From NCBI GenBank assembly GCA_964016885.1, contig OZ024743.1, forward strand, positions 71,858,001-71,922,000: 64,000 bases of DNA, read 5' to 3'. Shown one piece after another: positions 6,442-56,253 of this stretch. The position numbers and the translations under genes were made by a program. The first letter of the stretch is position 1, and every line of letters begins with the position of its first letter. The notes below the pieces were generated by a model, which worked only from the letters and a program-made list of their open reading frames with translations, had not been told where the DNA came from and ran no database searches. The stretch is from Eledone cirrhosa. Taxonomy: Eukaryota.

Positions 6442-8754
<2,313 letters not shown>

Positions 8755-12537: not shown

Positions 12538-14064
12538 ATGCTTTGGGAGGGTCATGTTGCCAATAAGAAACACACGCACCAGTTGCTTTCAATCCGATTT
12601 ATTATAAATTAAATTTACAAATTTCCGGTTGGCTAGCCGGTTCCACAACCGGACGGTTGTTCATATATTGTCAAATTCTTTCGTCACACATTCTGTGACC
12701 TCTTCAATGACTGGGGATTCTTTTCTTTGTTTTTGTGCCTCTCCTTTGTTCTGTCCTACGCCATCTTGTTTTTGTGTGTGTTGTGTGCTTAGTTTGCGCA
12801 TGTGTTACATCCGGGTGTCTGTGTGAGTTTATATTGTTTATTTATTTGTTTATTTACATGTTACTGGTTGGTTGTTTGTTCTATGTGTGTGTGTGTTTTC
12901 ATTTTGTCCTTAATTGTAAGTTGTGATATTGCTATTCCATTCATGTTTTCTATTTAATTTTGGTTGGAGTTCATTTATGTTTATTGCCTCTGTGATTTGT
13001 TTAAACATTGCGTCTTTTCTGTGTGTAGATTCTATTTTTATTTCTATGTTCTGTAATTTACCCTTATGTTCTATTTTAGCATATTGGTGGAGTACAGGTG
13101 ATTCTTTTCTATCTTGAAGCTCTCGCCAGTGTTCATTTATCCGTTCTCCTATACTACGAGCTGTCTCACCTATGTACACTATATTCTTATCTCTACATTG
13201 TCCTTCAGTACATCTTATGCTATATACAACATTTATAGTTTAACAGTCAATATGGAGGCTTAGTTTACAGATTATACATTTCTTATCTATACAGCGAGGT
13301 CTTTGAAAAGGGTATGTATTGCTAATAAGTGTTTTTATGGAGGTACCTGGTTTTTCTATTATCTTAACATTGAGTTTATGTTTATCTAAGGCCCTTCCAA
13401 ATTTGTAAGCTAATTCACCTGTAGGGGATGTATTGATGAACATTACACTCTGGTATTTATTGCTATCATACCATGAGTTTATTCTATTAACCTTATTCCT
13501 AGTTCCTTCTGTTCTATTCCAAAATTTGCTCCTTATCACATAGGCAATAAACATAAATGAACTCCAACCAAAATTAAATAGAAAACATGAATGGAATAGC
13601 AACATCACAACTTACAATTAAGAACAAAATTAAAACACACACGCACATAGAACAAACAACCAACCAGTAACATGTAAATAAACAAATAAATAAACAAATA
13701 TAAACACACACAGACACCCGCAAACTAAGCACACAATACACACAAAAACAAGATGGCGTAGGACAGAATAAATGAGAGGCAGAAAAGCAAAGTAAAGAAT
13801 CACCATTCACTGAAGAGGTCACAGAATGTGTGACGAAATAACTTTTTCAATATATGAACAACCGTCCGTTAGAGGAACCGGTCAGCCAACCGGAAATTTA
13901 TAAATTCTTAAATTTATAAATTTAATTTATAATAAATCGGTGATTGCAAATGGTGCGTGTGTTTCTTATTGGCAACATGACCCTCCCAAAGCATAACAAT
14001 ATCCGTTTCAACACATGTTTTCAGATAATGTATCTTGCTAAACAAATTCAGAAACGTAATAAAT
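12531..14064 (-). mobile_element. PLE family A remnant (minus, 12531-13537) joined to an inverted copy of its own 3' end (plus, 13538-14064)
   Basis: YIGETARSIGERINEH ORF 12910-13179; linker ORF 13240-13537; mirror-image 3' UTR. Confidence 0.9.
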
Positions 14065-14089: not shown

Positions 14090-17574
<3,485 letters not shown>

Positions 17575-21750: not shown

Positions 21751-21808
21751 GCACTCTATATTTAGGTTCACTTCTGTGATGAGGTGTAGAGCTATACAGA
21801 GTGTATAT

Positions 21809-21848
<40 letters not shown>

Positions 21849-21908
21849 ATATACACTCTGTATAGCTCTACACCTCATCACAGAAGTGAACCTAAATATA
21901 GAGTGCTA
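21751..21908. repeat. Perfect palindrome centred on (TA)n
   Basis: AGCACTCTATATTTAGG...GATG-(TA)n-CATC...CCTAAATATAGAGTGCT. Confidence 0.9.
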
Positions 21909-31649: not shown

Positions 31650-32364
31650 TTAGTGTGCGGCCCTCCCCCGAATATTTGTGCGGAAAATGTGTTCAGCCTG
31701 TCTACAATTGACAATTATGTCCGACCTATAGTTTATGGAAAATTTTAATTTAATTATTTCTGCCGCCTCAGCCAGGCATGACCTGCAGTTGTTTCTGTCA
31801 ATGGGGAGTTGTGCCACGCGTCTTTTCACTGACCACGAGATCTGGGGTTCGATGTTCCTGTCCTTGAGGTCCCAGATCAAATCGGCCAGTCTGGTTTGGG
31901 ATCGTTTCAGCCTATGTTTAAAGAAACTACTATGGTTATACCAGCGCTCCTTAAACGTAGTGGATGTCGCACCTATATATGAGTCTCTTTATTGCCGGCT
32001 GTGACATCACACCGGTAAACAATGTTTTTAACGAGGCACTCCCCGTTTAGTGGGCATTCGGCCCGGTTTTGCAGTTTCAGTTGGGTGTAACCAGTGTGAT
32101 GGCACGTTGGCGGTTGGTGGCATGCGGTGTGGATCTGGTATGTCGGTTGTTGTGTTGTGTGTGTGGTTTCGTTCTGGATTGTGGTGGTGGTTTGTTGTGG
32201 AGCAACCATGTGTTTTCTTATTTTTGTCCTCTTAGTGTGGGCTATTGTGTGGCCTAGATTTGGTGATGTTGAGAAAGATAATTTTACAGTGTGTCTATTG
32301 AAGAGCTTGTGTTATTTATGTGTGGGTGGAAAAGATTGGTCGAGAGCCCTGAAGAAGGTTCCCG
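31650..32364 (-). mobile_element. PLE family B-like GIY-YIG remnant
   Basis: FFRALDQSFP...LFNRHTVKLSFSTSPN; CPLNGECLVKNIVYRC; YIGATSTTFKERWYNH; CRSCLAEA. Confidence 0.85.
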
Positions 32365-32524
32365 GTATATATATATATAGGAAGGAATTGTGGTAAGGAA
32401 CCAGATGGACCATAACGCACCAGAGTAGTCAATACTTAGGGTAGTAGAGTGGGTAATAGGAAAAAAGAGTCCAAGAATAGCCGTCGAAACGGCTTGCGGT
32501 CTGCCGTCGGGGTCATACTTTTTC

Positions 32525-38452: not shown

Positions 38453-39061
38453 ATATATGTGAAAAAATGGGGAGAAGAATACTGCAGGTTGCACATGGAT
38501 AACATGTTATAAAATGAGTCCCTCATCAGTGATTTGCCAACGATCATAGATATTTCATTGCATTAAAAATCATATACCTCACGTTGGTGCAATAATAACT
38601 AAATTAAGTTATTAGGACAATTAAAACGCGTAAAGCGAGTGAGACAAGTAAACAACAAAGAGGAAAGCTAACCGTAGATAGGAAGGGCACAAGCTACATA
38701 GTTATTCTGTCAGCATAAGCTGGGTGAAAATATGTGCGCGTAGAAAAAAGACCTTTCGAGATGAATCCAAATGTAAGAAAGAAGGAAATTGTATTCGTCG
38801 CGAACGGGTTGAAGTGAGAAGGGGAGAAACAGTGAGTGAGTGAGTGGAAGTGTGAGGAAGAGGTCAGTAGAGAGAACGTGTTAACTGACATGACAGAGGG
38901 GGCGAAAAAAAGTAAGAGAAACAGAGAAAACGAGGGAGCAGTAAGAGAGAGAGAGAAAAAAACAGAATCGCAGTTTAGGTAAATATATGTGAAAAAATGG
39001 GGAGAAGAATACTGCAGGTTGCACATGGATAACATGTTATAAAATGAGTCCCTCATCAGTG
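38453..39061 (-). mobile_element. 530 bp non-coding unit with 79 bp terminal direct repeats, carrying an atypical hammerhead-like motif
   Basis: 38453-38531 matches 38983-39061; homologous to 45836-46487. Confidence 0.7.
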
Positions 39062-40036: not shown

Positions 40037-40040
<4 letters not shown>

Positions 40041-40887
40041 AGACGTAAAATAAGAAAATTATAAAATTAACTTACTTACTAAAATATCACTTCCAACTAA
40101 TTAGTTTCTGGAATGGAGTAAATATATTTTCCGAAGAATAATATATAGAAGCATTCCGTCGTCAGGAAAGTCTATTCTCATGTAAGTTTCCAGGCAAAGC
40201 GAGGACACTGGAAACTTATTAAAAAATAATTCAGTGGATAGGAAATAGCAAAGCGTGGACTGAATTCCAAGCCATTGAGAAAATCACTGCCTTTACATCT
40301 GTGGCAAATTCAAAAAGAATCAAACACGTGACATCGAGGTCAATCAGTGGAAAGTGGTTTGCTAATAAGACAGCGGCCTGCCTACAACCGTAGCAGCAGT
40401 CATGGCCAATATTGCTCGACATATAATTTGGAGATAATAATAAAGAATTCATATCTAGTAACATATAAAATACATACAGATGCATATCAATGCTAGCAAA
40501 TATATAGGTTTTGTCTTAATAACAGTGTGGTTCAATGCATGGGGCTGCAGAACAATAATATAAGAGACGTAAAATAAGAAAATTATAAAATTAACTTACT
40601 TACTAAAATATCACTTCCAACTAATTAGTTTCTGGAATGGAGTAAATATATTTTCCGAAGAATAATATATAGAAGCATTCCGTCGTCAGGAAAGTCTATT
40701 CTCATGTAAGTTTCCAGGCAAAGCGAGGACACTGGAAACTTATTAAAAAATAATTTAGTGGATAGGAAATAGCAAAGCGTGGACTGGATTCCAAGCCATT
40801 GAGAAAATCACTGGCTCTACGTCTGTGGCAAATTCAAAAAGATTCGAACACGTGACATCGAGGTCAATCAGTGGAAAGTGGTTTGCT

Positions 40888-40892
<5 letters not shown>
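40037..40892 (-). repeat. Tandem 524 bp units (about 1.6 copies), one HHR per unit (40089-40171, 40613-40695)
   Basis: ACTTTC-CTGACGA-c-GGAATG...CATTCC-a-GAAA-CTAATTAG-TT-GGAAGT; (TA)n both sides. Confidence 0.9.
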
Positions 40893-41187: not shown

Positions 41188-42453
41188 GTGGTGAAGAATC
41201 TCAAGATAGACGATAGAACCGAGCCGATTATACCCACAACCCCCACCTTTAACCTGAAGGACCATAAGGTAAATTTTGACTTTAACCCTAAGATTAGACT
41301 CATATGCCCTTCTAAACCAGACATAGGAAAAATTAACAAACATATACTTGACAGAGTAATAACTCAATTGAAAAAGAAAATAGAAATTAAATTATGGGGC
41401 AACACTAGCGAAGCAATTCGCTGGTTTAATAACGTTAAGAACAAGAATAAATCTAAGTTTATACAATTTGACATAGACGAATACTACTCTTCAATCTCAC
41501 CCGGCACTTTACGTAAGGCCATATCGTTTGCTAAAGTCAATTCCGACCTAACGGAGGACGAAATTAATATTATTCTAGAAGCTAGAAAAACTATTATCAA
41601 CTTTGATAACTGCTACTGGGAACTTAAGGACAGACCCACAAACTTCGACATTACCATGGGTTCCAACGACTCAGCGGAGGTCACCGATCTTGTGGGAATT
41701 TACATAGCCCACATACTACATGGTAAATTTAGTAATCTACAGGGGGGAATATATAGAGATGACGGGCTCTTATTAGTTAATAACTTAAATAACCCAAATC
41801 TTGAAAGGCTACGGAAAAACATTAGAAAATCTTTTAGTGAACTGGGTCTAAAAATAACGTACGAATACAATCTTAAAGTAGTAACTTTTCTAGACGTAAC
41901 TCTTAATTTAAATACCGGACTGATACGACCCTTCCACAAGATAAATGAGAACCTTACCTATATCAATTCTAACTCAAACCACCCACTTTCGATGATCAAA
42001 TCGGTTCCCCGTAGTATTTCTCTTAGAATCTCTCGCCTATCGTCTGACACTGAGATTTTTAGTGAACATGCTGAATACTATAATAAAGCATTAAGGAATG
42101 CCGACCACCGGGATACAATAGAATACATTGATAAGAATCTCCATAACACACATAGCTCTACACGAAATCAAGGAATACGTAACCAGGGTACTGAAATACA
42201 AGCGCACACACGGGGTACCACAAGACTTACTAATAATAGAAAATCATCACCAAATAAATCACGTTGTAGAAAGTATATCTGGTATAATCCCATTTTTAAT
42301 GCTTCGATTAGTACAAAACTATCTCTTTCATTTTTTAAGTTAATCAACAAGCATTTCCCTAGTTCCCATAAATACAGTAACATTCTGAACTCTAAAACTA
42401 TTAAACTATCATACTCCACGGCACCAAACCTTGAAGCATACATAAAAACTTAA
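41188..42453 (+). CDS. Penelope-like reverse transcriptase core (YRDD), open 421 aa segment
   Basis: ORF track plus RT motifs listed above. Confidence 0.9.
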   Translation: MVKNLKIDDRTEPIIPTTPTFNLKDHKVNFDFNPKIRLICPSKPDIGKINKHILDRVITQLKKKIEIKLWGNTSEAIRWFNNVKNKNKSKFIQFDIDEYYSSISPGTLRKAISFAKVNSDLTEDEINIILEARKTIINFDNCYWELKDRPTNFDITMGSNDSAEVTDLVGIYIAHILHGKFSNLQGGIYRDDGLLLVNNLNNPNLERLRKNIRKSFSELGLKITYEYNLKVVTFLDVTLNLNTGLIRPFHKINENLTYINSNSNHPLSMIKSVPRSISLRISRLSSDTEIFSEHAEYYNKALRNADHRDTIEYIDKNLHNTHSSTRNQGIRNQGTEIQAHTRGTTRLTNNRKSSPNKSRCRKYIWYNPIFNASISTKLSLSFFKLINKHFPSSHKYSNILNSKTIKLSYSTAPNLEAYIKT

Positions 42454-43518
42454 CTTAAAGCAATTAAACAACACTACAAAACAAAATAGTTTAATAACAG
42501 ATGAGCATAACGTAATATCTGCCTCCCAACAACACTAAATGGGAGACAGGTATTACACAACCCACCTGTACTGCTATCACAACCTATCCATGGTATACCC
42601 GCTATCCACAACAAAAACTGTAACTGCCACCTACCTGAAACATGTCCATTGAAGAATAAATGCCTCAAGTCCAACATTGTTTACCAATGCACTGTTGAAT
42701 CGAGTGTCCAGAAATGGTATTACATCGGGTCTACCACTACCTCCTTTAAATCTCGCTGGTACCGTCATCGATTCTCAATTAAACATCCTGATCACCGTTT
42801 TGTGACCACGCTCGCCAACAAGACCTGGCAACTCCGTGAACGCAACCAACAGTTCACCTTGAAATGGGATATACTTTCCAGCGCTAGTGCATATCGGAGT
42901 GGATTGAAGGTTATGTAACCTTGAACTCTTTTACATATTAAAATCAAAAAATAAATTACTAAATGAAAGAATCGAACGATCATTATACTGAAAGCTAAAT
43001 TCTCTCACTATAAAATAAATTAACATTCGAACCCGTAACTATAAAATTGCTTTCTAGCTAACCACTTTCTCTTCCCCGACACTACATACCCTGCTTATCA
43101 CTATAAATGGAAACTTAGTGCAATTCGCAGATTACTACTAATGAACCCAATGTACACCCACCCCATAGCTTTCGTCTGTCCCCTCTCGATCTCGCCCTCT
43201 CTATCCATTCTTCTCTCTCTCTCTCCCCCTAGGTCCACCCCCCTCTCCACATCTATGAAACTGCCCTCTGGGGCAATAAATAATCCCAATCATGACTATC
43301 AACGCATCGCTTAAGGTGGTCGCTTTAAGAGTAACCAGTATAATAAAACCCCTACCACAACATTTTGATTAAGATATCTACAAACCACTCTCTCCCATTT
43401 CTCCAACCCCTGTATATATATCTCTTTCTCTCCCTCTCTCCTCCTTTTCTCTCTTCCTTTTCTACTCTATCTTCCCCAATAACCTCACTTAAGGGAATTT
43501 ACATTGTACATTTTAACC

Positions 43519-45835: not shown

Positions 45836-46485
45836 ATATGAATAAAGTTAGTCATCATCAGTGATCTTCCAACCATCATTGGTATTTCATCGCTTTAAAG
45901 ACCATATACCTCCGGTTGGTGCGAGCAACGGCTAAAAAAAGTCGTTGGGACACGTAAATAAAGGGGACACGAGAGTGTAAACAAACAAAGATGGTGAAGC
46001 AACGAAAAGTGAGGAAGAAGGAGTCAAGTCCCAAATTTCCATGAATATAAGTTCGGTGAAATCGTGAACGAGAGAGAATAAAGACCATCAAACCTGGTTG
46101 GAATGTGAGCAAGGAAGGAATTCCGTACAGGTCTAACGGGAGGAAGAAGGAATCTAGTCTGTGAATTCGGTAAACATAAGTTCTGTGAAATCGTAGACGA
46201 GAGAGAAAAAAAAAAGGAAACCTGCCTGACCAAGGGTGCGAAAGAAAATAATTACGCTCAGGTCAAACGGGAAGAAGGAGGAGGAGGAGGAGAGGTAGTA
46301 ACAGAGAGTGAGTGAGTGAAGGGTGAGGAATAGGCTAACAGAGAGAGTGACTGCTAGAGAGGGTAAAGATACAGAGAAAGAGAAAGCAGTAAGAACGAAA
46401 GAGACAGGTCACAGCGAGGGAAAAAATATGTGTAAATATGAGAATAAACGTGCTGCGTGGTTGCTAATGGGTTACATATGAATAA

Positions 46486-46487
<2 letters not shown>
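45836..46487 (-). mobile_element. 640 bp terminally redundant non-coding unit, homologue of 38453-39061
   Basis: ATATGAATAAAG at 45836 and 46476; internal duplication of about 130 bp period. Confidence 0.65.
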
Positions 46488-55357: not shown

Positions 55358-56253
55358 TGTTATATTTTGGGAGTGTCATATTGCCAATAAGAAACACACG
55401 CACCAGTTGCTTTCACTTCAATTTATTATAATAAATTTATAAATTTAGGAATTTATAAATTTCCGGGTGGTTGATTGGTTCCACAACCAGATGATTGTTT
55501 ATGTATTGTCAAAGTTCTTTCGTCACACATTCTGTGACCTCTTCAGTGAATGGGTATTCTTTTCTTTGTTTTTATGCCACTCCTTTGTTCTGTCCTACGC
55601 CATCTTGATTTTGTGTGCGTGTTGTGTGCTTAGTTTGCGCATGTGTTACATCCGGGTGTCTGTGTGTATTTATATTTGTTTATTTATTTGTTTATTTATA
55701 TGTTACTGGTTGGTTGTTTGTTCTATTTGCGTGTGTGTTTTCATTTGGTCCTTAATTGTAAGTTGTGATGTTGCTGTTCCACTCATGTTTTCTATTTAAT
55801 TTTGGTTGGAGTTCATTTATGTTTATTGCCTCTGTGATTTGTCTAAACATTGTGTCTTTTCTGTGTGTAGATTCTATTTTTATTTCTATGTTCTCTAATT
55901 TACCCTTGTGTTCTATTTTAGCATGTTGGTAGAGTACAGATGATTCTTTACTATCTTGAAGGTCTCGCCAGTATTCATTTATCCGTTCCCTTATACTACG
56001 AGCTGTCTCACCTATGTACACTATATTTTTATCTCTACATTGTCCGTCAGTACATCTTATGCTATATACTACATTTCTAGTTTTACAGTTAATATGGGGG
56101 CTTAATTTACAGATTATACATTCCTTTTCTATACAGGGAGGTCTTTGAAAAGGGTATGTCTTGCTAATAAGTGTTTTTACGGAGGTACCTGGTTTTTCTA
56201 CTATCTTAATATTGAGTTTATGTTTATCTAGGGCCCTTTTAAATTTGTAAGCT
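55355..56253 (-). mobile_element. PLE family A GIY-YIG plus pLTR
   Basis: ORF 55752-56253: NVVYSIRC...YIGETARS.RERINE; pLTR terminus at 55355. Confidence 0.9.

Follow-up and report, generated by a model that had tools for sequence, protein, structure and literature searches.

Two insertions of non-coding repeat units, here called family 1 and family 2, lie on the minus strand of the analysed window, a 64,000-nucleotide stretch of the Eledone cirrhosa genome (contig OZ024743.1, positions 71,858,001 to 71,922,000). Each carries a hammerhead-type RNA motif, and neither encodes a reverse transcriptase (RT) or an endonuclease. The elements and their parts are as follows, in coordinates of the window:

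38459..39061, minus strand: family-1 insertion, a 530-nt unit plus a 73-nt repeat of its start, flanked by (TA)n/(CA)n tracts
38989..39061, minus strand: terminal repeat, holding block C and downstream sequence only, 100% identical to 38459-38531
38516..38618, minus strand: hammerhead-type RNA copy 1, block order S-G-C, split stem II
38614..38618, minus strand: strand a, GUCCU, pairing with a' (38522-38518) directly after CUGAUGA
38593..38614, minus strand: hairpin b of the four-way junction, with 6/6 pairs changed on both sides
38589..38593, minus strand: strand c, AUUGC, pairing with c' (38561-38557) directly before GAAA, 87.3% paired
38582..38587, minus strand: strand d, CCAACG, pairing with 38542-38537 as the outer extension of stem III
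38573..38578, minus strand: block S, stem III strand GGUAU, with U16.1 at 38574 and H17 at A38573
38567..38572, minus strand: stem I strand UGAUUU after the predicted cut, pairing with AAAUCA (38535-38530)
38549..38556, minus strand: block G, G12 A13 A14 and the stem III strand AUAUC
38543..38548, minus strand: 3-nt bulge plus GA, facing UGA (38581-38579) in a kink-turn-like internal loop
38523..38529, minus strand: block C, CUGAUGA
45839..46487, minus strand: family-2 insertion, a 640-nt unit with a 9-nt overlap, bounded by (TA)n tracts
45851..45951, minus strand: hammerhead-type RNA copy 2, predicted cut 45905|45904

Read 5' to 3', the motif consists of strand a, hairpin b, strand c, strand d, UGA, the stem III strand GGUAU, A17 and the predicted cut; these are followed by the stem I strand UGAUUU, a 5-nt linker, c', GAA and the stem III strand AUAUC, and then by the 3-nt bulge with GA, d', the stem I strand AAAUCA, CUGAUGA and a'. 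Stem III (GGUAU/AUAYC) and stem I (UGRUY/RAYCA) therefore cross each other. A scan of six block orders returned S-G-C as the sole solution in each window copy, with a stem I of 6 and 8 pairs and a stem III of 6 and 5 pairs in copies 1 and 2, respectively, and a direct stem II between A9 and G12 of one pair in each. The strands flanking the core pair not with each other but with a third, upstream strand (a/a' and c/c', with hairpin b between them), so that, as read from the sequence, stem II is replaced by a four-way junction. In copy 2, helix a is reduced to 3 pairs because a base is absent after CUGAUGA. Between the two window families, similarity is 76-80% across the core and 54-66% across most of the remaining sequence. 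The pattern GAAA..TGA..CTGAYGA has four matches in the window (0.01 expected), two of which lie in another repeat.

Both copies were found at the positions and on the strand given by the original prediction, with GAAA preceding CUGAUGA in each, but the limits given there were too short: the motif begins ~16 nt further upstream, at 38618 and 45951.

The fold was assessed on genomic copies. From 187 copies, 62 representatives were chosen; seven with a truncated or rearranged upstream part were left out before alignment, which left 55 aligned rows. Rows were kept only if at least 7 of the 10 stem I and stem III pairs formed, and the patterns used to draw most of the 55 loci prescribe the core boxes and H17, which inflates both core conservation and stem I/III pairing in this set; helices a to d were unfiltered. 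In the proposed structure, 85.0% of 1623 cells are paired and 25 of 30 pairs are changed on both sides. Its score of 0.461 compares with 0.213 for shuffled alignments and was reached by none of 500 shuffles, which do not model relatedness, and controls with slid registers pair 30-49% of cells. The helices of strand d are 87-90% paired, with two-sided changes in 5/6 pairs, and helix a is 69.9% paired, lineages B and D being out of register upstream. Strand a pairing varies in step among copies (GTCC/GGAC, ATCC/GGAT or TTTCCCT/AGGGAAA). Stems I and III are 91.8% and 90.9% paired in these rows, which were filtered on the same stems, and 10 of their 11 pairs show changes on both sides (6/6 for the helix UGAUUU/AAAUCA).

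The CUGANGA and GAAA boxes are invariant in the 55 pattern-chosen rows and, by eye, nearly invariant in 57 rows drawn by BLAST. At the proposed cut, the U16.1 column holds T in 54 rows and C in one, and U16.1 is likewise kept, by eye, in 56 of the 57 BLAST-drawn rows, which were not chosen by pattern. The U16.1-A15.1 pair is UA in 54/55 rows. H17 is A in 40 rows, C in 11, U in 4 and never G, an H at this position being required by most of the drawing patterns. Subfamilies in the 55-row alignment also differ, by eye, in the pairing of the bases that follow A9 and those that precede G12, which join either one another or strands a and c, a variation that resembles a junction shifted by one pair.

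The original prediction had drawn another fold over the same boxes, in which stems I to III are closed local hairpins, loops I and II kiss, the chain opens through a helix X, and the cut falls at UA|UGAU after GAAA-N4. It was right in kind to propose that the hammerhead is atypical, that a further helix follows A9 and that the junction is four-way; the fold can be drawn on copy 1, and two of its helices covary. One of these, reported as a swap of TTGC/GCAA for TCGC/GCGA between the two copies, is present as such, and TYGC/GCRA pairing covaries in the 55-copy alignment. The second swap, CCAACG/CGTTGG for CCAACC/GGTTGG, is also real and also covaries, but the kiss ascribed to it is not upheld, CCAACN/NGTTGG being an outer helix that prolongs stem III across the internal loop. 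The remaining stems are broken by variants among the genome copies, and these variants pointed to another register: helix X is paired in 59.6% of cells, the one-pair stem III in 19/55 copies (34.5%), and stem I (TGAT/ATCA) in 64.1% of cells with none of its four pairs changed on both sides. The columns at that cut site read T19, A19, C13, G4 for U16.1 and A34, G21 for H17, a scatter that recurs by eye in the 57 BLAST-drawn rows, and the nested part of the fold costs +8.1 kcal/mol. We regard it as extremely improbable. In the supported register, the order is non-circular S-G-C rather than three closed stems, and U16.1-A17 is present in both copies (38574-38573 and 45906-45905); the 38.5 kb copy is therefore not, as had been stated, the sole one with a UH site.

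In a kink-turn, two helices are separated by a 3-nt bulge and, after it, tandem G.A and A.G pairs. The bulge-GA internal loop fits this description by sequence in lineages A and D, and several lineage B copies have Watson-Crick pairs or a plain 3-nt bulge in its place. Together with weak Rfam C/D matches over the motif (14-19 bits), the kink-turn-like loop could be taken for that of a box C/D snoRNA-like retroposon, with RUGAU and CUGA boxes and no catalysis. The Rfam scores are far under the gathering scores of 65-85, and GAAA, U-H and stems I and III would be left unexplained, so that this reading has a vanishingly small probability. Rfam, run over the whole window and the element, gave no hammerhead match on the motif at E up to 10; a Hammerhead_3 match on a partial repeat scored 18.5 bits against a gathering score of 48.5. 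Hairpin, pistol, twister and HDV ribozymes, fitted by eye to their consensus structures, were dropped as candidates.

The S-G-C pattern has 12,426 matches in the 3.0 Gb genome against 2 for its reversed control. Patterns forcing other stem letters gave 175 matches against 0 in the control, 5 against 0, and 174 against 17. In these further lineages with different stem letters, the partner strand is altered too and the layout is kept. A 108-nt query from copy 1 found 1106 candidates, and the 40 that were scored are all 100% identical; for a query from copy 2, the 40 scored matches among 436 candidates are 86-100% identical. In family 2, variants having T after CUGAUGA were attributed to the query used and left out of account. 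Loci L275-L294 of the same genome include at least three more S-G-C lineages, with stem III UGGU/ACCA, two of which are without the bulge-GA loop; at one of these loci (L286), a direct stem II of 4 pairs can also form, making it a possible intermediate. At another locus (L135:1677-2130), blocks G and C, but not block S, are repeated in an internal tandem of 95 nt.

Units of 530-640 nt are inserted at (TA)n, are partly tandem, and end with the hammerhead motif. Loci of both families have variable 5' ends and 3' ends fixed at (TA)n, ~16 or ~63 nt beyond CUGAUGA; inverted 5' pieces occur among the insertions, and head-to-tail unit spacings cluster at 445-534 and 614-706 nt. A 120-codon frame in unit 1 is not conserved, as its length ranges from 23 to 122 codons among 14 copies.

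The block order S-G-C is shared with type-SGC hammerheads (HRIMA-1, SGC variant; Eckert, Friedrich, Weinberg, Weinberg 2023, PMC10085705), as are the crossed stems I and III, the core letters, and the short linker that connects the stem I strand with the strand preceding GAAA. In vitro, type SGC cleaves at 0.007-0.19 per min; it is recorded there only from metatranscriptomes, with a direct stem II (also evident in the SGC-3 oligonucleotides) and an extra ‘I’ helix (PMC10085705). The motif described here differs in that stem II is not a direct helix but is divided by a third strand to form a four-way junction; in that the ‘I’ helix, which joins other sides of stems I and II, is absent; in that stem III is prolonged through a kink-turn-like loop; and in that it resides in an animal genome at over 12,000 copies. 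Having the S-G-C order without the stem II of that type, it would work like type SGC but would not be a strict member. Its wiring would break the assumption of an uninterrupted stem II made in that study (PMC10085705), and the accessible literature yielded no tested hammerhead with such a split stem II. Type II (GSC) hammerheads also have GAAA before CUGAUGA, but they are cut between the boxes, whereas the cut predicted here lies upstream of GAAA.

If transcripts are cut, an RT running off the cut template should leave copies that begin at the cut. Truncated copies were compared at two anchors that both start with TGA, the predicted cut and a matched site 8 nt upstream. Family-1 copies break off within 5 nt of the predicted cut in 65 cases and of the matched site in 43, and exact-anchor breaks with a preceding C or T, a class that can be recognised at both sites, number 10/65 and 1/43, respectively. 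The truncation excess at the predicted cut (Fisher p 0.047) is small and measured against one control site. Ambiguity affects 39 of the 65 junctions at the cut because the native GGTATA resembles the target (TATA microhomology), and among non-TA flanks there is no junction excess at the cut (7 versus 19 junctions). As a trace of cutting, the excess is suggestive only. A first search of 5' junctions had been dropped as confounded by TATA microhomology, and an earlier junction control was replaced since its design left out TA flanks.

We consider it probable that the hammerhead motif at the end of this high-copy, non-coding tandem retroelement cuts its own transcript after GGUAUA; in copy 1, the likely position is 38573|38572 (GGUAUA|UGAUUU). 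The fold could instead be right and the RNA slow or silent by itself, needing a protein such as a kink-turn binder, or serving as a recognition or end-protecting structure for a Penelope-like element (PLE) enzyme. A direct stem II of one pair would agree with this, as would the slow rates of the published SGC ribozymes (PMC10085705) and the many insertions, the majority, that continue uncleaved through the cut site. Such read-through is also expected from a circular template, however, breaks are commoner at the predicted cut than at the matched site, and the core boxes, U16.1-A15.1 and an H17 of A, C or U are kept in at least six lineages and in other phyla. A slow or silent RNA thus appears unlikely, and self-cleavage remains the preferred reading.

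Animal non-LTR retrozymes are likewise non-coding, AT-rich tandem units with one hammerhead each (Cervera and de la Pena 2020, PMC7229834) and have been proposed to be PLE passengers (PMC7229834; Li, Clavereau, Pollet 2026, 10.64898/2026.07.22.740005). They have type I hammerheads and units of 150-450 nt, as opposed to the S-G-C order and units of 445-700 nt found here, and their circles have been shown. In the window element, the bend and the third strand may bring the sides of stems I and II together and so substitute for the usual contact between loops I and II. With one cut per unit, tandem transcripts would yield monomers of 530-640 nt, whose ends should stay paired, since the cut is bridged by helices a, c, d and III (~20 bp in all). 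Paired ends would ease circularisation of the kind known from animal retrozymes, for which RtcB circularises over 80% and self-ligation ~3% (PMC7229834). Priming by a Penelope-like RT/endonuclease might follow at (TA)n, ~16 or ~63 nt beyond CUGAUGA, on the model of target-primed copying by PLEs at (TA)n (10.64898/2026.07.22.740005); copying of more than one unit would produce partial tandems, 5' truncations and inverted 5' pieces.

Targets of (TA)n, partial tandems and inverted 5' copies are shared with Naiad PLEs (Craig, Yushenova, Rodriguez, Arkhipova 2021, PMC8557442), but they are common to other PLE clades and are not diagnostic of Naiad. Naiads have an ORF with an N-terminal GIY-YIG and a C-terminal RT, which the window units do not have. 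That publication describes a preference for (TA)n and Naiads without canonical hammerheads, with the halves of a hammerhead core far apart in eight cases, and marks some Naiad ends as ‘HHR_core’ or ‘HHR_half_core’ (PMC8557442). In its supplement, we inspected by eye 56 of 62 CTGATGA sites, 23 of 23 CTGACGA, 25 of 25 CTGAGGA and 10 of 43 CTGAAGA. Ten Naiad ends show the full a-b-c, d, III, I layout, among them Naiad_Obim, Naiad_Ovul and three coral-type records, and the hairpin b loop and bulge-GA loop of Naiad_Obim and Naiad_Ovul are common to lineage A. One of the ten, from a ctenophore, has a stem I of only 2 pairs; an eleventh end has stems I and III only. Another six agree with type C-S-G and have a direct stem II; three of these adjoin nematode record names. 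Type C-S-G is represented in PMC10085705 by only two metagenomic sequences. Six inspected ends bearing CUGANGA were not fitted by eye.

A metagenome scan returned 118 matches, of which 12 belong to one Naiad-type family resembling the coral records; the others were treated as chance. In eight aligned copies, the six helices of the motif are paired in 94.4% of 359 cells, and two-sided changes occur in helices a, d and I. On one metagenome contig (L207), an ORF ending in a PLE RT thumb stops 326 nt upstream of the fold; this contig and a second (L222) alone show the last residues of the RT upstream of the same fold. The L207 ORF has 1735 relatives at E up to 0.001, with the motif RYIDD...YDKRDDF...SNIP..PAYGVYISQL, and many of them end soon after it, like RT-last Naiad records, in which the motif was also seen; no N-terminal endonuclease came to light. 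The best 150 relatives in a representative library are only fragments of up to 302 aa, and the 8 tested had no Pfam match. It is likely that the ribozyme descends from the 3' end of Naiad PLEs.

Which enzyme now moves the repeats is a separate question. The 86-aa piece of L207 had no match in the window's own genome, and no Naiad ORF was found upstream of 4 lineage-D or 20 lineage-E/F/G copies. A 208-aa relative had at least 51 matches there, with 150 of 496 candidates scored. Thirty were fetched: 17 are decayed Naiad-like RT remnants, in which motif profiles found no ribozyme (flanks up to 1.5 kb), and 13 belong to another PLE. The Naiad-like remnants are decayed, whereas family 1 is young. 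The ribozyme may thus be Naiad-derived while another (TA)n-inserting PLE clade now mobilises the young repeats, a possibility we take seriously without favouring it. It concerns only the mobilisation step and is compatible with descent from Naiad. The Naiad-like RT matches are broken and 62-92% alike in pairwise pieces, in line with the description of cephalopod Naiads as old remnants (PMC8557442); the 13 matches to another PLE have open frames of up to 687 aa, and 8 of them carry a canonical type I hammerhead; and family 1 has many identical copies. On the other side, an intact Naiad may be missed with 150 of 496 candidates scored and a distant 208-aa fragment as the query.

A PLE fragment between motif copies in L091/L092 was rejected as the partner, as it is antisense and has its own type I hammerhead. 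A PLE family with an RT, a C-terminal GIY-YIG and a type I hammerhead is present at L091:5235-6300 and at L313-L324. The letters of its block C and stem II (CUGAUGA-AGGAC, GUCC) match strands a/a' of lineage A; it is possible that this hammerhead was the source of the split stem II, or the match may be due to chance.

The natural non-circular RNA permutations published in 2023 came from environmental RNA whose hosts were unknown; genomes of known organisms had yielded none, except for one doubtful case (PMC10085705). Searches of the literature covered, which excludes subscription journals, turned up no publication that links the S-G-C order to Naiads or to animal genomes; in the passages covered, PMC13725137 only cites the 2023 permutation paper. 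The present data place a non-circular permutation in an animal genome at over 12,000 copies. We lean slightly towards a broader reading, in which the Naiad clade uses non-circular hammerheads: C-S-G in nematodes, and an S-G-C form in molluscs, cnidarians and ctenophores. The stem II of the S-G-C form would have been rebuilt as a four-way junction, and its four helices, by holding the cut ends, would serve as an inbuilt clamp for circularisation. If this is true, no other natural source of non-circular RNA permutations would be as large as animal genomes, and animal retrozymes would comprise a second class. Naiad PLEs would have seemed devoid of hammerheads because standard descriptors and Rfam are blind to the S-G-C order, and ribozyme counts in invertebrate genomes are predicted to be too low.

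The window contains further repeats. A SINE motif of an octopus-like kind would suggest a cephalopod host. A second (TA)n-inserted tandem repeat with a 524-nt unit lies at 40039-40892 (minus strand) and has a type I hammerhead, whose stem III is palindromic, whose stem I has 6 pairs and whose stem II contains a long insert; its CUGACGA boxes are at 40689 and 40165, and an upstream GAAAC is tied up in an 11-pair helix. At 21761-21895, (TA)n forms the centre of a perfect inverted repeat of ~135 nt, which is probably a fold-back insertion junction. Decayed GIY-YIG/PLE C-terminal remnants of at least two families are found at 7862-8053, 13060-13245, 15824-16627, 31749-32368, 42268-42903 and 55902-56087.
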